Notes: generated from the letters alone by a model not told the origin. Shown: positions 7,357 through 55,654, counted from the whole stretch's first letter. The stretch is 61,574 nucleotides of DNA, filler included, from 6 parts of 6 records of this genome joined end to end with filler, not necessarily neighbours in it, one strand, 5' to 3'. Program-made: numbers and translations.

Positions 7357-8565
7357 GCGAGACCACGCAATCCTCTGCCGCACCATTTGCGGCGCGCACG
7401 GTTGCCATCCTGATTGCGGTGGCGGTCTTCTCCTTCGGGGCGATTATGGTGCTTGCCGGCTGGTCGCCGGAACTACGTGATCGCGACCGGGCAGGGGATC
7501 ACCCCTTCTCCACCTCCGCCATCGGATACAATGGCATCGTCCGGCTGCTGGAAGCACAGGGGTATCCGGTCGAGATCTCCCGTTTCAAAAGCAATCTGGA
7601 TGGGCATTACGGCCTGATGATCCTCACGCTCTCCACGCGCGGCATGGGCAAGTCTCTGAAGGAGTATGAGCTCCAATCGGATACCCTGATCGTCCTGCCC
7701 AAATGGTCAGGCATGGTCGACTGGACCAATCCGTCCCGCATGAAAGACACCGACCTCGCAAACGAAAGTTCGGTCGCCAGCGTGCTGGACGCATTGGGAA
7801 TCGAGGCCGAAGTCATACGGACTGATGTGCCCGGCCGCGTCGCCACACCCTTCGGACAAGCGACAATCAAACCGGATCTGCAGCTCCAGCTGCTCCAGTC
7901 GGAGGAACTGACGCCCATCATTCGCACAGGTGAGGGTGCCCTCCTGTCCCAGCTTCCCGGCCAGGACATCTACATTCTTGCCGACCCCGACCTGATAAAC
8001 ACGTTCGGTTTGGCGGAACGCGAGAATGCCCGTTTCGCGATGCAGATGATCAACATGATGCGCTATAGCGACGATGAGCCGATCATCTTTGACGCGACGC
8101 TGCATGGTTTCACACGGTCTGAAAACCTTCTGCAGATGATGTTCGACATCCCCTTCCTGGCAGTCACACTTGTCGCGCTGGCAGCGGCTCTGCTGCTCGG
8201 CTGGGCAGCCACGATCCGGTTCGGCCCGCCAGCCCGCGAGACCCGCGCGATTGCCCTGGGGAAGCAAGCACTCGCGGATAACTCGGCTGGTCTCGTGTCC
8301 ATGGCACGCCGCGAAACGCGGATGGCGCCCGGATACTTGTCCCTCATCCGCCGGCGTCTCAGCAAACAGATCGGCGCGCCTCGCAACCTCACCGAAGCCC
8401 AGTTATCTGAATTGTTTGACCGCCTTGGTCCGGAAGAAGTTTCTGGCAAGACGTTTTCACAGATTGAAGCCGGTCTGCGTGGCCCTGCCGCCAACCGGGA
8501 AGACTTGATGCACAAGGCCCGCGACCTCTGGCGCTGGCGCCGCGATATTCTCAGGAGATCCATGA

Positions 8566-8579
<14 letters not shown>
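7353..8579 (+). CDS. DUF4350-domain membrane protein
   Basis: N-terminal [35 protein letters not shown] overlap; operon position. Confidence 0.75.
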
Positions 8580-9518
<939 letters not shown>

Positions 9519-12857: not shown

Positions 12858-12957
12858 NNNNNNNNNNNNNNNNNNNNNNNNNNNNNNNNNNNNNNNNNNN
12901 NTTAATTAATTAANNNNNNNNNNNNNNNNNNNNNNNNNNNNNNNNNNNNNNNNNNNN
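12858..12957. other. artificial contig spacer (N44-TTAATTAATTAA-N44)
   Basis: Seen directly; the linker has stops in all six frames. Confidence 0.98.
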
Positions 12958-23422: not shown

Positions 23423-23522
23423 NNNNNNNNNNNNNNNNNNNNNNNNNNNNNNNNNNNNNNNNNNNNTTAATTAATTAANNNNNNNNNNNNNNNNNNNNNN
23501 NNNNNNNNNNNNNNNNNNNNNN
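23423..23522. other. artificial contig spacer
   Basis: N run with TTAATTAATTAA. Confidence 0.98.
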
Positions 23523-23546
23523 GTTCAAATCCGCCCCCGGGCACCA
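23523..23546 (+). tRNA. 3' fragment of a tRNA (T-loop, acceptor 3' strand, CCA), most likely tRNA-Phe; or an att-site duplicate
   Basis: GTTCAAAT-CCGCC-CCCGGGC-A-CCA. The anticodon is not in the contig, so identity is inferred from resemblance to alphaproteobacterial tRNA-Phe 3' ends. Confidence 0.75.
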
Positions 23547-23553
23547 TTAAAAT

Positions 23554-23581
23554 AGGCCGTCCCTTCGGGAACGGCCTTTTT
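23554..23581 (+). terminator. rho-independent terminator after the tRNA end
   Basis: AGGCCGTCCC-TTCG-GGAACGGCCT followed by a T tract. Confidence 0.85.
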
Positions 23582-23781
23582 CATTTGTTGCTTAAAAACT
23601 ACATCCACAAATTCTGGATGACTTCTTATGTTGTCGCGCAATATTTCTTACGTTGGCCCTAGGCAGAACCTGTCACAGATAGTCCCCGCAACCAATTTAG
23701 GTAGATACACAATTTACATATTAACTAAATTTCCTCATGATACAAAAATAGAACCGCTACGTGCCTTCGGAGGCCTATATT

Positions 23782-24780
23782 TTGACCAAAACCTCTTGCC
23801 CGATTTCAAATGCTAAGGCAGTCACATTACAGCAATCTCCTGGGATTGATGGTGACCTCTATGATTCCCCTGATGCTGGAGGTAAATATCGGATATCCGG
23901 AACTGCTAAAGCCATGCTCAACTCTTTGAGTGCCGACGAAAGGCAGTACCTTATCGACCTGATAACATATGAAAACAACTTCGACGGCATACCTATAATT
24001 TCTAGCCTCACAATAAAAGAAGCTAAAAAGAAAGTTGCGAAGCGCGAAAAATCTAAGAGCGGAAAAAACAAAGCTCAAGAACGGCGGCTTGAAGCCGAGG
24101 CACAGTGGAAAAATTTCTTAAACTGGGTAGATGAATACAGTAGAGCAAACTGGTTGTTTCGTGGCGTCGCAGATGCACAAAACCACCAACTCGTACCCAA
24201 AATCGCCCGGCTTGATCTAGGGGGGTATAACGCCAATAGCGAAGCCACAATTTTCCGCAATTTTCAAAGACGTGCGCGCCAATATATCGATGCATCAAAC
24301 ATGACAGAGTGGGATTGGCTCGCAGTCGCACAACATCATGGTTTACCTACTAGACTACTCGATTGGACCAGCAATGCGCTGGTTGCCGCATATTTCTCGG
24401 TAACTAGTTTTCCCGAAGATAGCGACGCGATCATATATGCTTTAAATACGTCCAAATATGATTTGCTGGATTCAACTGCATCTTGCAGACCATTTGAAGT
24501 CACAGCAGACAACTTATTCAAGCCATCCAGCCACTCTTTAAGGGTAGTTTCCCAAAAAGGATTCTTCACCATCAGTCCAGATCCAAGCACACCACTCGAA
24601 GAGAAAGACAGCTTGTTGAAGACGTTCAACATTCCTGCCACAGACAAACACATATTCGCAAAAAAACTATTCTATCTGGGTATGGATAGCTCCCATATCA
24701 TGGCTGATATTGATGGGATTTGCCAAACATTGGGTTGGCAATACAAAAACAACATCGCAATTGGCAAGTTCAACTATTAG
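23782..24780 (+). CDS. FRG-domain protein with an extra N-terminal domain
   Basis: WLFRG, LVPKIAR, AQHHGLPTRLLDWT.N.LVA.YF; likely TTG start at 23782 after GGAGG (track start 23761). Confidence 0.9.
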   Translation: MTKTSCPISNAKAVTLQQSPGIDGDLYDSPDAGGKYRISGTAKAMLNSLSADERQYLIDLITYENNFDGIPIISSLTIKEAKKKVAKREKSKSGKNKAQERRLEAEAQWKNFLNWVDEYSRANWLFRGVADAQNHQLVPKIARLDLGGYNANSEATIFRNFQRRARQYIDASNMTEWDWLAVAQHHGLPTRLLDWTSNALVAAYFSVTSFPEDSDAIIYALNTSKYDLLDSTASCRPFEVTADNLFKPSSHSLRVVSQKGFFTISPDPSTPLEEKDSLLKTFNIPATDKHIFAKKLFYLGMDSSHIMADIDGICQTLGWQYKNNIAIGKFNY

Positions 24781-24785
24781 GATTC

Positions 24786-25130
24786 ATGATGGCAATAATT
24801 GATCAACATGAGCTGTTCGCTAAACTCCAGCCCTTCTTTGACAACGCAATACAAGACCCGGTTTCCGGGATTAACAATTGGGATGATCTGGATTGCCTAT
24901 CGGGACATACGCGCGTGGAAGACATCTATGCTGACCCAGACGGTTTGATTATCAAGGGGTCCAAGTTCTCTGGGATTGGTGAAGTGATAGTCGAATTATC
25001 ATTTGGAGGAGCGCGTGATCGCACTTCTTTTGGCGATTCTTTCCCCGTTACATATGTAGGAGAAGTATCTAAGGATGACACAATTCACGTAACATCTCTT
25101 ACTGTCGATACGAGTTCCTATTATGAATAG
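24786..25130 (+). CDS. small acidic protein resembling the predicted pPIWI-associating nuclease domain (pP_pnuc_1)
   Basis: LD.LS.HTRVE..., G.V.V.L.FG...D...DSFP..., terminal VDTSSYYE; starts 5 nt after the FRG stop. Confidence 0.6.
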   Translation: MMAIIDQHELFAKLQPFFDNAIQDPVSGINNWDDLDCLSGHTRVEDIYADPDGLIIKGSKFSGIGEVIVELSFGGARDRTSFGDSFPVTYVGEVSKDDTIHVTSLTVDTSSYYE

Positions 25131-25348
25131 CCAGCTACAAAGTCTCTATTGGGTTTCGAAAGATTAGGGTTTTGGTTTTTTTAAAGTTGCTAAGATAAAG
25201 CTACTATTCCGCCGACAATACCTTCCAGCAAGCTTAATGTATCTAGGCTTATTTGCAGTATCTCAGATAGGGGACTTCTCTGAGACCACACAAAATTAAA
25301 TTGATTTAGTGTTCACCTTGGTTAGGATCTCATAAATATCATCAGGGG

Positions 25349-25954
25349 ATGAATTCTAACATGACTGCTCCTTTCAATTCAAAAATCAAAGAAGCACTCG
25401 CCTACAATCGCGACAAGTCCGCACCTGGTTTACCGTTTTTACCTAGAATCGACGTACTCATTGATTCCGATCATTGTCAGCAAGTTTCAGATGCTTTGGT
25501 CAATAAAGGCTCGAATTGGTCAAAACTTGATGCCGGAACAAACATGGCGTTACATATTCCAGATCAATACGGTTTGTACATGTTCGTTTGGATACCTGAG
25601 CTTAAACTCAAGATCGAAGAACCCAACGGCACAACCAAATTCTCCAAATTTCCATGGTGTCTTTATGTCGGCAAAGCCCAAAATTCCACACTAAAGGCTA
25701 GATTCACGTCAGAATATCAGAAGTATATTGACGGCAACCCTAGTGATTTATGGGAACCAACCCAAGAAAAACGGGAAGTCTTGCTACGAACCTATCTACC
25801 GATTAGGCCACTTCAATATTGGTTTCTCCCGGTTCACAAGCCTGCCGATACAGATGAGTTGGAAAGAAAACTCATATACATATTGCAACCTCCGTTGAAT
25901 CTTCAGAGAAAAATCCGAGCTAGCCTAGCACAAAAACCAATCCCTGCTTTTTAG
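25349..25954 (+). CDS. GIY-YIG superfamily nuclease
   Basis: GLY...YVGKA...LKARF...ELERKLI...PPLN. Confidence 0.8.
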   Translation: MNSNMTAPFNSKIKEALAYNRDKSAPGLPFLPRIDVLIDSDHCQQVSDALVNKGSNWSKLDAGTNMALHIPDQYGLYMFVWIPELKLKIEEPNGTTKFSKFPWCLYVGKAQNSTLKARFTSEYQKYIDGNPSDLWEPTQEKREVLLRTYLPIRPLQYWFLPVHKPADTDELERKLIYILQPPLNLQRKIRASLAQKPIPAF

Positions 25955-25964
25955 GAGAACTAGA

Positions 25965-27254
25965 ATGTCAAACAAAACACTTATTCCGGCATTCAATGCC
26001 AAGGTGGGGGATTGGAATTATTATATCTGTCATATGAAGTATGGCGAAGTTGCTCGGCAAGTTAACTTCGCCTATGAACTTGGCGGCAATAAAGATCTCT
26101 CCACTATGATCCAAAGAGGTATTTCATCCAGGACGGAAGAAATTACTGAGTACCTTCTATCATCTGACCACAGGTTTTTAGGTGCTCTCATTGTCGCGGC
26201 TTGGGGGGGCGCTCCTGAGTACATCCCTGTAGAAATTACCGATGCAAACGGCGACCAAATGGTCACTGGCTTAGATCGCTCATTTGGTGTGCTGACATTT
26301 GATGGGTCACAGCAGTATTTTGCTCTGGACGGTCAACACAGACTTCGAGCAATAAAAGAGGCATTGATCGCCAACCCTGAACTGGCGAAAGAAGATATCT
26401 GTGTTTTGATGGTTGCTCATTACAATACTGAAGAAGGTCGCCAAAAGACTCGCAGACTTTTTACAAATATCAATAGGAATGCAAAAGTCACTACCGGCGC
26501 GGAGAATATTGTTTTGGATGAAGATGATGGCATAGCCATTTTGACTCGTCGGTTTATTACTGAGCACAGTTTTTTAAGCCAAAAAGGCAGAGTGAAAGTC
26601 ATCAATAAGAAGTCAGATGATGGCGAATTGAAACTAGCTCCATCAAATATTCCAGTTGGAGATAAGTTTGCTTGGACTTCTATTGTGCCGTTATACGATT
26701 GCCTCAAATTGCTGGCATTCGGTCTACCATCCTCAATGAAAAATCCTACTGCAAGACCAGCGAATGATGTCCTCGATAAGGCGTACGACGTGCTCAGCAA
26801 ACGCATTGAAGAATTACTAGAGGCCTGCGGCAAAACTGAACAGAGGCTTGACGGAGCCGACAATGCTAGAGAAATCCGGTTCCCAAAAGGTTCAGAATCT
26901 AACGGTCATCCATTTATGAGACCAGCGATTCAAAAAGCAGTATGTAAGGTAATAAACTCTTCAATGGAGAAAGATCCACAGGTGATTGAGTGGGAAGAAC
27001 TACTCGTAAGACTTGCTAAACTTGACTGGCGACTAGGGGCCGCGCCATGGAACGCAGTTTACTCGGTTGAAGGCAAAAAAATGTTGACTGGCAAAGAATT
27101 CAATGAAGTTTTGGACAAACTTCTTATTGCACACCTAGCTCCTTTAAATAAGGCCTTTGTAAGAAATGCTCGACGCTCATATAGAGAGCTGTTTGGTCAT
27201 CCCTATCCCTATTCAGAGGAAGACCTAATTCAGAATGTAGTGCAGCAGGAATAA
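25965..27254 (+). CDS. DGQHR-domain (DndB-like, ParB-superfamily) protein
   Basis: IQR, I.EYL, RF, LDGQHRL, RLFTNIN; SD AGGAG overlapping the GIY-YIG stop. Confidence 0.9.
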   Translation: MSNKTLIPAFNAKVGDWNYYICHMKYGEVARQVNFAYELGGNKDLSTMIQRGISSRTEEITEYLLSSDHRFLGALIVAAWGGAPEYIPVEITDANGDQMVTGLDRSFGVLTFDGSQQYFALDGQHRLRAIKEALIANPELAKEDICVLMVAHYNTEEGRQKTRRLFTNINRNAKVTTGAENIVLDEDDGIAILTRRFITEHSFLSQKGRVKVINKKSDDGELKLAPSNIPVGDKFAWTSIVPLYDCLKLLAFGLPSSMKNPTARPANDVLDKAYDVLSKRIEELLEACGKTEQRLDGADNAREIRFPKGSESNGHPFMRPAIQKAVCKVINSSMEKDPQVIEWEELLVRLAKLDWRLGAAPWNAVYSVEGKKMLTGKEFNEVLDKLLIAHLAPLNKAFVRNARRSYRELFGHPYPYSEEDLIQNVVQQE

Positions 27255-27322
27255 TTCGACTATGGAGGTACAGCAGACTCTTATACGACTCCAGTTGATT
27301 TCCGCCCAGAATTGGAAAAGTC

Positions 27323-27739
27323 ATGAGCGAAAAAATCTGTTTAGAAGAGATATATCGGCAGCAGTATGCGCATTTCGGAAGAATGAATGACCTACTCTAC
27401 AAACTTCCAGTCATTTTTTCAGCTGGGATTGGTGCGTTTTGGTATTTTGGTTACCAAGTGAAAAGCGATACTCCATCTGTGTCTATTGTAGTGTTTATTT
27501 TTTCTGCAGCTTTATCTATTGCCTGTTTTCAGGTTACCCGGCGTTTCGGAATGGCTTTCACAGCGTACATTGTGAACATTAATAAGTTAGACGGCTCGTA
27601 TGCAATTTCGTTGGAAAGTGATAACAGTCCGTCTGTAATTAATGTAATTAAATTCATCCTTTTGTTATCGACGGGACTTTCATTATTAGTTGCGGGCTTA
27701 ATTGCTTACTTCACTTATTGCCCAATGGCAGCGAACTAA
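27323..27739 (+). CDS. small 3-TM membrane protein, unknown function
   Basis: N-terminal helix, two TMs, amphipathic segment, third TM; clean 138-aa ORF. Confidence 0.7.
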   Translation: MSEKICLEEIYRQQYAHFGRMNDLLYKLPVIFSAGIGAFWYFGYQVKSDTPSVSIVVFIFSAALSIACFQVTRRFGMAFTAYIVNINKLDGSYAISLESDNSPSVINVIKFILLLSTGLSLLVAGLIAYFTYCPMAAN

Positions 27740-27774
27740 CTCAAAAAACTGAAAACCTCATATTCCATCACAAT

Positions 27775-28617
27775 CTATTTGTGACAAGTGACGCACATCT
27801 TCTGCTGACCATATAGATCGTCGATATCTATAGGATCATGGTTTGGCCGAAGCGGGTTTTGCACACGTTTCGCTTTCTCTCGTGCTAGACGTTTTTCATA
27901 ATCAGCCTGTATTGCTGCAACACGTTCTGGCTGCGATAGCTCGATGAGCGTTTCACCTTGGCTCCATGAAAAAGGCGAACCGTGTTCCAAGGCGTTCTTT
28001 TCATATGCCTTAGCTTCTTCGAAAGCATCTGGGTGTTCCTTCATGAGTCTTACCCATTCAATCTTTCGTTGGAAGAAACAGAAGGTACAGCCACTGCGCG
28101 ACCGCCAGGAGTAATAAGCAGGTAGACCCAAACCAGCAGAGTCTAGCAAATCCATAACGCCGGCTTTATCCACGCCGTCTTCTTTAAAAGGAAGTTTGAT
28201 AATTAACTTGTCACTTTTCGAAGCATAGCCTTCGCGAAACTCTTCATCAGCGCGAATAGCGACATAGCTATAAACGGTGTAGCCTTCATCCAAAAAGTCC
28301 CTCTTAACCCACTCCTCAAAAGGTTTGAGTTTCAACATCTTCGTGCACCACCTCGTTTGTGCAGACGGCAAAAAACTGTTATATTGATTGAGCCAAAAAT
28401 CAAAATCCCGACTTGGATCAAGCCGCGTTATATTTTTGCCGAGAAACCCTTCTAGGTTGGTGAGGTAGCTATAGACCTCTGGAAGCTCTTTACCTGTATC
28501 GGTGAAAAAATATTCGATTTCGAGTTCAGGGTGCATGAGGTTCATATAAACGGCGAGCGCCGCACTGTCTTTGCCACCAGAAATACCAAGAACATGTTTA
28601 ATCTTTTCACTAGGCAA
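27775..28617 (-). CDS. sspD: PAPS-reductase-family ATP pyrophosphatase, SspD-like (DNA phosphorothioation)
   Basis: PP-loop SGGKDS, DTGKELPE, RWCT..LK, RSGCTFCF, terminal CVTCHK. TTG start at 28617 after AGGAG, overlapping the upstream stop. Confidence 0.75.
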   Translation of the reverse strand: MPSEKIKHVLGISGGKDSAALAVYMNLMHPELEIEYFFTDTGKELPEVYSYLTNLEGFLGKNITRLDPSRDFDFWLNQYNSFLPSAQTRWCTKMLKLKPFEEWVKRDFLDEGYTVYSYVAIRADEEFREGYASKSDKLIIKLPFKEDGVDKAGVMDLLDSAGLGLPAYYSWRSRSGCTFCFFQRKIEWVRLMKEHPDAFEEAKAYEKNALEHGSPFSWSQGETLIELSQPERVAAIQADYEKRLAREKAKRVQNPLRPNHDPIDIDDLYGQQKMCVTCHK

Positions 28618-30785
28618 GTTTCTTCTCCTCGACCAAGCGATCATGCTCATCAATTAGAGAGGCACTAACTTGCGCTAGAGCGGCAAGGACAAGGTTGGGG
28701 TCAGACTTCGCACTTGCTGCCACAGCGGCCTCGATCTGTTGCACGAGAGAGCCAATTCTCTCGTTTTCAGAGTCAAGAACGTCAAACTCACGAACGTACG
28801 GTGCAGGCCTACCACTCATGCCCACGACTACGGCAATGGCTTCCCTTTTGTCTTTACGGCCTTTAACTCGTGCGACAGTTTCATGGCGATTAAACGCTTG
28901 CGCTAAATTTGTCAGTTCTACAGCCGCTTGATCGAGATCAGTGTCGATCCAATCCTTGGGTTGCCGGTTAACCGCCAAGCTAGCCAAAGCTTCAAATGAG
29001 CCAAGCGTCTCATCGAGTGATGAGACCCTATTGATAAATGCCTCTAATCGAGCGTCGCCCGTAATACCCTTTACATTAACCCCCCGCTCGCTGAGTTCAG
29101 AAAAGGCGCGCCCGGACAGGCTATGAACTTGTAACTCAGCAAGGATTTGGTCTCGCATTTTTTGAAGCATGTTCGGGTATGCATCTAGAATTTCTCTTAG
29201 GCCATCACGGGTCTGGGAGGCGACGTATTTGATTCCTTCAACCGACGTAACGTCTGTTTCAAATACATAGAGCTCAGGAATGTCGTTAAAAATAAATTTA
29301 TTGGGGTCACTTGCTTGTTTAAACACTGAGCGAAGCTGCATGGCGTTCTTTGATAGACGGAGGGTCTTATGGACCCACTTAGGCGCGCTGTCGAACGCAG
29401 CAATGAGCGCGCGTGCTACATCAATAGGCTCCAAGTCTAAAACAGGGTTTCCAGACAGCTCTGCAGCTATGTCAGCGAGTTCGCCTAACAAAGTCCGCGC
29501 AACTTCGGAAATGTCCATCCAGCGTATCTGGATAAGCTCCGGACTTTTCAAAAGATAATCGGTATCGACATCCGTAAGCCTCGAAAGAAAAATCCCTCTA
29601 TTATAATAGGCCAACTCTGCTTTTTCGGTCAGCATCAACAATACCGCCAATAGAGGCAAAACACCTTCTTTGATTCCGAAAGGAGCTGCAGTCCAAATAC
29701 CATAAAGCTCTTCAACAGTAACGCTTCGAGACTGATTTTCTTTCAAGAAGCTTTTGGCTGCTTCCCATGCCGGCGCCAAATTGGCAACTCCGTTAGCTTT
29801 AGGAGCAACAAACTTCCAATCATGCCCAGACTTGATGTGTAAACTGTTGGCTGCAAGAAGCGATGAATACAAGCCCCTCTCGGCTGGATATTTTTGGAAA
29901 CCTAAATTTTCTTCTGACTCTTTTGAAACCATGGCATGCAGGAGCATTTTCAAGGCTCCATTCGCACTTCCAGAAGGCTTCGACCGATTGATCAGCTCGT
30001 TATGTAAAACTGGCGCCTTGTTGAAGCGCTTGTCTGCAATATCAGATACTAACGAGTTCGCAGCCTGCCAAGACAATAGTTGAGGCTTGGTACCTGCAAC
30101 ATGCCAAAGCGACCCTGTAAGAATAAGCCAAACCTCTTGTTCGATTTTCAAATCAAGAGCTTCGATGCGCTCTTTGATTTCCCGACGTGCCACTTTGTCG
30201 TTTGCAATTTCCTGGTTGTTATCCAGCAAGTGAACCAATACGGCCCGATCTTTCGCTAAAGTAGCAAGCGAGTTCTCCTCTTTGGAGGCGACAGCTATTA
30301 CGTCAAAATCTGATATTTTTGCTTGTACTTTATCAATTGCATTCAGCGTGTCTTTATAAGATTCCCCAGCCGTCGGAATAGCCAACGCAACTAGACCAAA
30401 AGCCCCGCTCTTGTTCGAATGCTGAATAGCGGCACTCTCAAACTGATCCACCGGTAAAACAGCGAAGTCACACCAGCGCATATTGCCTGTTTGATGATAA
30501 TGCCTTTTCGCGGCGATGACCGGCGTTGCGACCGCAGAAGCAATGGCGCCGAGATCAATGTCATGGATTGCCCGCGACGCCTCAATCGTCGCTTCTTCAA
30601 TATCAAAGTCACTTCCTTCAAAAATCGCGTACGAATCACGGAAGCGTCTAAAAATAATGGCAGAATGGGTTTCAAGAACACGGATCGCGTGTTCAATATC
30701 ATCTCTTTCATGGCCTGGCAGTGCAAGGCACAACGCTTCTAAGCTTGCGCCAACACCGGTTTGACGACGCGTCATCTCCAACAAC
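28610..30785 (-). CDS. sspC: large ATP-binding protein, SspC-like (5'-truncated by contig end)
   Basis: More than 724 aa open to the gap; Y.IFEGSDFDI, AKRHY..TG.MR, NELINR, PFGIK.G. Coupled to an SspD-like gene. No Walker motifs in the visible part. Confidence 0.65.
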
Positions 30786-30885
30786 NNNNNNNNNNNNNNN
30801 NNNNNNNNNNNNNNNNNNNNNNNNNNNNNTTAATTAATTAANNNNNNNNNNNNNNNNNNNNNNNNNNNNNNNNNNNNNNNNNNNN
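30786..30885. other. artificial contig spacer
   Basis: N run with TTAATTAATTAA. Confidence 0.98.
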
Positions 30886-35099: not shown

Positions 35100-35192
35100 A
35101 TTTAAGGCTCGCAGCGAGGGAAACCTGTTTCCCGAGGTGCCAGACATTCTCTAGTCTGGATGCTCTGTAATAACCTTCCAACAGGAGCCTCC

Positions 35193-35585
35193 ATGCTGCC
35201 GATCCACCACATGATCGACCAGGCGCCACAGCCGGTCGCGCCATTCTCCCATGCCGTCGAAATTGACGGCTGGGTGTTTGTAACCGGCCAGATGCCGACA
35301 CTGCCGGACGATCCGGACGCCCCGCTGCCGGAAGGCATAGAGGCGCAGACTGTGCGGGTGATGGAAAACCTGAAGCTCGTTCTGGGCGGCCTCGGGCTCG
35401 GCCTTGAAAACACGACTTTCATTCGTGTCTATCTGACTGAATTCAAGCGCGATTATCAGGCTATGAACGACACCTACCGGTCATTTTTCGAACCCGGTAA
35501 ATTGCCGGGGCGTACCTGTATTGGCGTGTCGGGCCTTGCCGTCGATGCGCTGGTCGAGATCGATCTGATCGCCCGGCGGCCGTAA
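35193..35585 (+). CDS. RidA/YjgF family protein
   Basis: PVAPFSHAV, TGQMP, LPGRTCIGV, VEID. Confidence 0.92.
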   Translation: MLPIHHMIDQAPQPVAPFSHAVEIDGWVFVTGQMPTLPDDPDAPLPEGIEAQTVRVMENLKLVLGGLGLGLENTTFIRVYLTEFKRDYQAMNDTYRSFFEPGKLPGRTCIGVSGLAVDALVEIDLIARRP

Positions 35586-50047: not shown

Positions 50048-50147
50048 NNNNNNNNNNNNNNNNNNNNNNNNNNNNNNNNNNNNNNNNNNNNTTAATTAAT
50101 TAANNNNNNNNNNNNNNNNNNNNNNNNNNNNNNNNNNNNNNNNNNNN
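50048..50147. other. artificial contig spacer
   Basis: N run with TTAATTAATTAA. Confidence 0.98.
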
Positions 50148-55554: not shown

Positions 55555-55654
55555 NNNNNNNNNNNNNNNNNNNNNNNNNNNNNNNNNNNNNNNNNNNNTT
55601 AATTAATTAANNNNNNNNNNNNNNNNNNNNNNNNNNNNNNNNNNNNNNNNNNNN
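55555..55654. other. artificial contig spacer
   Basis: N run with TTAATTAATTAA. Confidence 0.98.

Follow-up and report, generated by a model that had tools for sequence, protein, structure and literature searches.

What is a GIY-YIG nuclease gene, tightly joined to a gene for a DndB-like protein with a DGQHR motif, doing opposite the genes of a DNA phosphorothioate (PT) writer? This question is raised by positions 25349 to 30785 of the DNA analyzed here (the window), a stretch of 61,574 nucleotides composed of six draft-assembly contigs chained by five linkers. A first-pass annotation had described a coupled nuclease-DGQHR gene pair, separated by 10 nucleotides and converging on sspC- and sspD-like genes, and had proposed that it might be an undescribed, PT-coupled, split analogue of the effector SspE. 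The arrangement itself is confirmed by the open reading frames (ORFs), by profile matches and by the predicted folds. Beyond this locus, the two genes very probably represent a conserved, unnamed module, consisting of a GIY-YIG nuclease gene followed by a gene for a DndB-like protein of about 430 amino acids, that is attached to PT operons. The module usually ends the ssp operon; on the contig that occupies positions 23523-30785 it is inverted and faces sspD.

Evidence for such a module comes from other genomes. More than 1000 relatives of the DGQHR protein were found in many phyla, at 54-67% identity over the full length and usually under the source label 'DndB'. Scanning a single genome for each species gave 120 confirmed DGQHR relatives, from which the 80 best loci were retained together with 10-kb flanks; counts out of 80 refer to this set unless another sample is named. 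Directly upstream of the DGQHR gene, and on the same strand, a GIY-like ORF was recognized with a profile of the nuclease in 66 of the 80 loci (62 of them at E <= 2e-39, the other four being weak).

The genomic company of the pair is equally specific. An sspD gene of at least 40% identity is present in 56 of the 80 loci at a distance of no more than 10 kb, and in 49 of these 56 it is on the same strand and upstream, giving the order sspD, GIY, DGQHR. In 47 of the 49, sspD and the start of the DGQHR gene are 611-1140 nucleotides apart, a space that the GIY gene occupies but for tens of bases on either side. The remaining layouts place sspD on the same strand and downstream (three loci), in divergent orientation (one) or in convergent orientation (three); the last of these, which matches the inverted layout of our contig, was seen in L004, L065 and L035. 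Thus, the earlier remark that no same-strand gene follows sspD is accurate for this contig but fails as a general trait, since the pair itself usually takes that place. Clustering of the flanking ORFs, combined with their annotation, yields the canonical order sspA-sspB-sspC-sspD-GIY-DGQHR.

The pair is found beside Dnd writers as well. DndC, DndD or DndE genes adjoin the pair in eight further loci, seven of which have it beside dndE-dndD-dndC-dndB, and four of those seven also carry dndFGH. In the seven loci, canonical DndB is already present next to dndC. Genes for SspC/D or DndC/D/E are present in 65 of the 80 loci and SspB alone in 4 more, such that PT genes lie within 10 kb in 69. Five loci are truncated; the genomes of two of them carry a full-scoring SspD where another contig ends, and a DndC-like gene was found for one. 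The combination of pair and Ssp genes is distributed over Actinomycetota (42), Pseudomonadota (7), Myxococcota (2) and Armatimonadota (1), and that of pair and Dnd genes over three phyla. The pair is strongly linked to PT genes across phyla, and in this genomic sense the proposed coupling to PT is supported. What does not hold is a restriction to Ssp, because the pair also accompanies the double-strand Dnd writers.

Some pair loci carry further elements. At L078:7799-12000 (Myxococcales) there are two copies of a divergent pair, each formed by a small protein and a DGQHR protein, one of which follows sspD while the other converges on it. Four Dnd-linked loci (L061, L062, L064 and L073, at about 8000-9500) have a Mrr-type nuclease with a HARE-HTH domain, a protein of 166-172 amino acids, or both, between dndH and the pair. 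This smaller protein (cluster 20) belongs to no known family and is present in L043 as well.

The nuclease is visible by structure rather than by curated models. The 201-residue protein has no Pfam match above threshold and no PADLOC or NCBIfam match, and the closest hint from Pfam is a sub-threshold hit to PF20815 (GIY_YIG_2; 20.8 bits against a cut-off of 22.4). Sequence searches against solved structures returned nothing useful for either this protein or its DGQHR partner. An AlphaFold model was built from an alignment of 31 relatives, with a predicted local distance difference test (pLDDT) score of 89.8, and contains a core at about residues 56-187 that is preceded by a helical N-terminal extension. 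When this model is compared by VIA-align with approximately 48,000 representative solved chains, the best match is the N-terminal domain of UvrC (Z 9.7, root-mean-square deviation 1.7, 85 of 89 residues). Further matches are T4 EndoII (Z 8.0), R.Eco29kI (7.2), I-TevI (7.1) and PD-T4-3 (5.1), all of which are GIY-YIG enzymes, and unrelated folds start at Z 3.8. UvrC and Eco29kI are also the top matches by Foldseek.

Specifically, at least 96% of 51 relatives share each of the residues in G75-x-Y77, Y106-x-G108, R118, Y123, E172 and N184. With the model as our guide, we are confident in predicting a GIY-YIG fold with the full set of catalytic residues, and the protein is a divergent member of this nuclease group that is apparently active. 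Among 1.84 billion representative proteins, its family counts 416 at E <= 1e-3, of which 121 reach E <= 1e-30. The best 150 of the 416 are all 228 amino acids or shorter, and thus are stand-alone proteins. No fused forms came to light when the 31-sequence profile was run against longer proteins, although this negative result is weak evidence.

The second protein of the pair, with 429 residues, is related to DndB in its N-terminal half. It matches the Pfam DndB family (PF14072; E 9.1e-26, 91.1 bits against 29.1) through residues 7-217, which correspond to profile positions 1-193 of 338, and its only PADLOC match at E <= 0.01 is likewise DndB (PDLC02658). With 81.3 bits, the protein exceeds the cut-off of the DGQHR-domain model TIGR03187 (58.85), and it fails the DndB equivalog model TIGR03233 (59.9 against 328 bits). 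In its predicted structure (pLDDT 81.9), a ParB/Srx (sulfiredoxin) fold occupies about residues 12-190. VIA-align places this region close to PadC (Z 7.3), the ParB N-domain of pNOB8 (6.6), KorB with CTP (6.5) and sulfiredoxin (6.4), and Foldseek agrees. Three elements, Q50-R51, D122-G-Q-H-R126 and F166...N170, are invariant in 30 sequences; QR, DGQHR and FxxxN are listed as signature motifs of DGQHR and DUF262 domains in the accessible text of PMC4619093. A DndB-like protein is reported to bind ATP and GTP, according to the portion of PMC12704722 available. The helical C-terminal half (about residues 200-429) has no recognized fold by structure comparison, and a protein-atlas search with it gave unnamed clusters only. 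A complex prediction for the nuclease and DGQHR proteins scored 0.23 against a mark of 0.34, a value that counts neither for nor against binding.

Is this protein simply DndB under another arrangement? Canonical DndB, the regulator of dndBCDE operons, shares with it the DGQHR domain, membership in the ParB superfamily and linkage to PT operons. The pair protein is about 70-90 residues longer and differs in its C-terminal half. Furthermore, its gene is preceded by a nuclease gene, as in the 66 loci noted above, whereas that of canonical DndB is followed by dndC. An assignment to canonical DndB was rejected on the basis of the failed equivalog model, the partial profile match, a separate clade and the lack of dndC adjacency. 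The clade was identified in a tree of 84 rows, from which cluster members shorter than 330 amino acids were left out, and which was made by a quick search with support only from the Shimodaira-Hasegawa-like approximate likelihood ratio test (SH-aLRT).

In this tree, 7 canonical, dndC-adjacent DndB proteins split from 77 pair-type DGQHR proteins with an SH-aLRT of 100. Near the base lie seven of the eight pair proteins from Dnd-linked loci; those from Ssp-linked loci make up a single group of 64 (support 91), and the 429-residue protein groups with alphaproteobacterial sequences from Pelagibacterium and Roseovarius (support 98; 59% identity). The root joins long branches, and the effects of taxonomy and of context are confounded, so that the tree is no proof of co-evolution. 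Regardless, canonical DndB still sits next to dndC in the seven Dnd loci, and thus the DGQHR protein of the pair is no simple substitute for the DndB regulator.

The closest functional parallels are SspE of SspABCD-SspE systems and DndI of IscS-DndBCDE-DndI systems. In both, a ParB-like NTPase domain reads PT by means of a hydrophobic patch, and PT-stimulated hydrolysis of nucleoside triphosphates (NTPs) switches a fused HNH nickase (accessible text of PMC11662687 and PMC8092258). Like the pair, SspE and DndI combine a ParB/Srx NTP-binding module (QR, DGQ(Q/H)R and FxxxN) with a nickase or nuclease, are encoded beside PT writers, and can coexist with other effectors. They differ from the pair by uniting these activities in a single chain rather than two, by using a DUF1524 HNH nuclease rather than a GIY-YIG enzyme, and by carrying a DUF262 domain with DGQQR in place of the DGQHR of the DndB branch. 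Moreover, the pair is a single family that serves Ssp and Dnd contexts alike, and its sensing of PT is putative.

Given the logic of SspE and DndI, a split version that employs a GIY-YIG nuclease is the most economical reading of the pair. We hypothesize that the DGQHR protein would bind DNA and a nucleotide, read the PT status of the DNA, and then license or restrain its GIY-YIG partner, which would nick or cut DNA that lacks the host mark. The pair would thereby add an extra restriction-type effector layer to the writer, compatible with SspE, DndFGH or a nuclease-helicase. By analogy, we see the chances as evenly balanced that the pair is a two-chain, PT-sensing nuclease defense module formed by a sensor and a nuclease.

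Several observations weigh against this reading. The similarity to SspE is limited: the structural match of the DGQHR protein to SspE is weak (Z 4.6, with BrxU at Z 4.3), and a comparison by hhalign with six SspE sequences gave no sequence homology (probability 0.3). The kinship is at the level of fold and motif only. The DGQHR protein was likewise rejected as an SspE, since it has neither a PADLOC SspE match at E <= 0.01 nor profile-profile similarity. SspFGH was considered and rejected too, there being no match to SspF, SspG or SspH among the ORFs of the contig or the 67 ORFs of the other contigs. In addition, SspE shares the locus in 4 of the 80 loci and DndFGH in another count of 4 of 80, so the pair is not needed as the sole effector. 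This coexistence marks the pair as an add-on and not as a replacement. Therefore, of the idea of a split SspE analogue, what remains is a ParB/Srx-fold protein and a nuclease on two chains; its role as a stand-in for SspE does not survive, and neither does an occurrence restricted to loci without known effectors.

Partnership with the nuclease is also not universal, as the GIY gene is missing beside the DGQHR relative in 14 of the 80 loci, three of which (L007, L018 and L080) have fewer than 450 bases of upstream sequence. In four others (L013, L017, L036 and L037), a superfamily 2 (SF2) helicase gene precedes the DGQHR gene. The helicases of L017 and L036, encoded directly upstream, have a weak N-terminal DUF559/MTES_1575 nuclease-like region (E 6e-5 to 4e-3). 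These matches, weak as they are, suggest that a helicase with a nuclease-like region might replace the GIY protein, and hence that nuclease partners may be swappable. Furthermore, five genomes whose DGQHR loci have no PT gene nearby (L013, L036, L070, L074 and L076) yielded SspD in none of five and DndC in none of five assembly-wide searches; all are metagenome-assembled genomes of uncertain completeness, and only L076 has a GIY partner.

A reverse sample, centered on SspD rather than on the pair, is also unfavorable. Among 80 metagenome loci (L081-L160) that carry the closest relatives of the SspD on our contig (59-76% identity), a DGQHR gene comes directly after sspD in only five (L086, L094, L098, L113 and L158), four of which have a weakly scoring GIY-like ORF upstream of it. 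At L106, a DGQHR gene lies 4.8 kb from sspD in convergent orientation. When only the 56 loci with at least 2.5 kb of downstream sequence are counted, 2 have DGQHR, 6 have SspE, 18 have a helicase (one of these 18 also has SspE) and 31 have none. By these counts only a minority of Ssp writers have the pair, which in this sample occurs about as often as SspE. Finally, that the pair sits within the writer operon would be just as expected of a modification accessory or a regulator.

The helicase seen in the reverse sample is an SF2 protein of 540-760 amino acids with ResIII and Helicase_C domains and a weak PbeA-like PADLOC match, and it is the commonest neighbor of this SspD clade. It was found in 18 of the 56 evaluable metagenome loci and in 38 of the 80 pair loci (for example L097:5864-7492, L101:7380-9035, L026:357-2075 and L017:4458-6677). 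The helicases of the pair loci form cluster 6, and the weak nuclease-like region described above is found on long helicase forms. This protein looks like another unnamed Ssp partner.

If the pair instead keeps house for the writer, the DGQHR protein would limit or target PT incorporation or repress the operon, as DndB does for Dnd. The GIY-YIG protein would then supply or remove nicks at PT sites in the course of turnover or repair, for instance of oxidized or excess PT, and foreign DNA would not be attacked. The co-orientation of the pair directly downstream of sspD in the 49 Ssp-linked loci, as if co-transcribed, fits such a role, and so does the absence of canonical DndB from Ssp operons. 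The best structural match of the nuclease, UvrC, is an excision-repair enzyme, and DndB is described as a non-essential negative regulator in the accessible parts of PMC10853773 and PMC12914056. Nevertheless, we regard this regulatory role as unlikely. Canonical DndB already stands beside dndC in the seven Dnd-linked loci, where the pair is extra, and the SspABCD systems characterized in Vibrio and E. coli carry out DNA modification although they have no such genes, as far as the available text of PMC8092258 indicates. The C-terminal half of the DGQHR protein is unlike that of canonical DndB, as reflected by the Pfam profile that is matched no further than position 193, and the five genomes tested all have the DGQHR gene without a detectable writer. 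Another scenario, which we consider quite improbable, casts the nuclease as an indiscriminate toxin that the DGQHR protein keeps restrained until the PT system fails or is inhibited, making the pair a backup effector of abortive infection. URI/GIY-YIG nuclease genes at the boundaries of Dnd neighborhoods, sometimes on the opposite strand, have been proposed to encode defense-related effectors with just such a suicide role (Rakesh, Aravind and Krishnan, 2024; PMC10853773, accessible text), and the loci shared with the primary effectors SspE and DndFGH, four each, would suit a backup. These border genes are probably the same nuclease genes as those in the Dnd-linked subset of pairs. Unlike the situation described here, the main text of that paper, so far as it is accessible, mentions no obligatory DndB-like partner, no Ssp operon context and no family as a unit. 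In addition, tight pairing with a ParB-like NTP-binding protein suggests an action that is guided by DNA and not indiscriminate.

It is very unlikely that the pair is an independent defense system, Dazbog-like or other, that merely shares islands with ssp and dnd genes. Dazbog is a two-gene defense system said to include a DndB-like protein, and a relationship to it had been raised by the first-pass annotation. PADLOC 2.0.0, which we take to contain Dazbog models (DzbA/DzbB), has no model other than DndB that matches either protein at E <= 0.01, and no Dazbog, SspE or SspFGH model was matched; the nuclease has no PADLOC match at all at this threshold. The pair also differs from Dazbog in its GIY-YIG partner and in its embedding in PT operons, and we have set the Dazbog interpretation aside. 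What does speak for chance co-location is that the contig resembles a defense island, with an FRG/PDC-S15 gene and an Argonaute-nuclease remnant next door, that the pair is inverted relative to sspC and sspD here, and that some relatives reside in genomes without a detectable writer. These points are outweighed, in our view, by the fixed order of sspD, GIY and DGQHR, which is maintained with gaps of tens of bases in four phyla, and by the presence of PT genes in 69 of the 80 loci when dnd or ssp genes occur in only about 10% of prokaryotes (accessible text of PMC12914056). We continue to favor the two-chain, PT-sensing nuclease module. Neither the pair as a unit nor its position in Ssp operons is described in the literature searched, which included the available text of PMC12839542, in agreement with the initial impression that it could be new; this search covered the main text of PMC10853773, whose supplement may list the genes.

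The features of the locus and its surroundings are collected in the table below. An AGGAG-type ribosome site in the intergenic gap overlaps the stop codon of the GIY-YIG gene, a placement that suggests translational coupling of the two genes. The SspD assignment rests on a PADLOC match with an E value of 2.1e-131, in which residues 19-292 span profile positions 1-277 of 277, and on the Pfam PAPS_reduct family; 520 nucleotides separate the stop codons of sspD and the DGQHR gene. SspC was recognized in the same way (E 1.2e-186), with alignment only to profile positions 400-1044 of 1045. The contig end at 30785, after which an N linker follows, removes about 400 N-terminal residues, including the ATPase part. 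Because the contig ends inside sspC, this truncation is an assembly edge and not biology, and sspB, sspA and any sspE lie beyond view. No PADLOC match to Ssp or Dnd models was found at E <= 1e-5 among 67 long ORFs of the other five contigs.

Table. Features of the pair-bearing contig, followed by the linkers of the window.
Feature	Position	Strand	Remarks
GIY-YIG nuclease gene	25349..25954	+	201 aa, intact, stand-alone
Intergenic gap with ribosome-binding site	25955..25964	+	10 nt, read from sequence
DGQHR/DndB-like gene	25965..27254	+	429 aa, intact
138-aa ORF with hydrophobic stretches	27323..27739	+	between the pair and sspD
sspD (PAPS-reductase-like ATP pyrophosphatase of the Ssp writer)	27775..28653	-	292 aa
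sspC, C-terminal part only	28610..30784	-	724 aa
FRG-domain protein (PADLOC candidate system PDC-S15)	23761..24780	+	Pfam FRG E 1.2e-25; PDC-S15 E 1.3e-71
pPIWI/Argonaute-associated nuclease remnant, C-terminal third only	24720..25130	+	Pfam pP_pnuc_2 E 1.1e-8; PADLOC Aga_Nuclease profile positions 173-267 of 267
Artificial contig linkers (N run, TTAATTAATTAA, N run)	12858-12957, 23423-23522, 30786-30885, 50048-50147, 55555-55654		23423-23522 is the left edge and 30786-30885 the right edge of the pair-bearing contig

The 138-aa ORF that separates the pair from sspD probably does not belong to the module. Pfam, PADLOC and NCBIfam place it in no family at E <= 0.01, a YccF hint being meaningless, and it has no counterpart by tblastn (E <= 1e-5) across the 80 related loci; it could encode a small membrane protein or have arisen by chance. 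The FRG-domain gene is a defense-island neighbor that lies outside the GIY/DGQHR module. It is this gene and the Argonaute-nuclease remnant, both upstream of the pair, that give the contig the appearance of a defense island. About 25 bases at the contig start (23523-23580) resemble the 3′ end of a tRNA, with T-arm, acceptor strand and CCA, and are followed by a 10-bp GC-rich hairpin. Such a start would fit an island inserted beside a tRNA gene; ARAGORN and Rfam matched no tRNA there and give this unconfirmed reading no support. Scans for promoters and terminators gave about as many matches as chance would (12 where 11.6 were expected, and 7 where 7.2 were expected, respectively).

The pair and the ssp genes are wholly contained in the third contig, which has 7263 bp and a GC content of 44.5%, whereas the remaining five contigs have 52-67% GC (the full span for all six being 44.5% to 66.8%). 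Because N linkers separate the contigs, genes outside 23523-30785 are not physical neighbors of the pair, and arguments from neighborhood across a linker are invalid. The assembly may derive from a mixed or patchy bin, and the 44.5% GC contig may come from an organism other than that of the adjoining contigs. The finding is unaffected, as it sits inside one contig. Elsewhere in the window, a PD-T4-2_B-like fragment occurs at 35106-35582 (E 8e-18), and an ABC/AAA ATPase gene at 57010-58755 matches several defense ATPase models (mad3 E 1e-57), which are probably generic ATPase matches.

According to the accessible text of PMC8092258, approximately 84% of 2,678 sspBCD clusters have no known restriction partner. 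The nuclease and its predicted sensor account for part of these partnerless clusters. In many Actinomycetota the pair is how the operon normally ends, and it is found again in Pseudomonadota, Myxococcota and Armatimonadota. The module also connects a nuclease with the DndB branch of the ParB superfamily, which until now was regarded as regulatory. A more far-reaching proposal, which is possible but doubtful, is that the pair represents a third PT reader-effector that is independent of writer type, in which a DndB-branch sensor of the sulfur mark, be it single-strand (Ssp) or double-strand (Dnd), would switch a GIY-YIG nuclease in trans. If true, PT immunity would be modular, with one sensor and exchangeable nucleases that include the GIY-YIG enzyme and, in some lineages, a nuclease-helicase. 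The pair thus offers a testable route to how PT marks are read.

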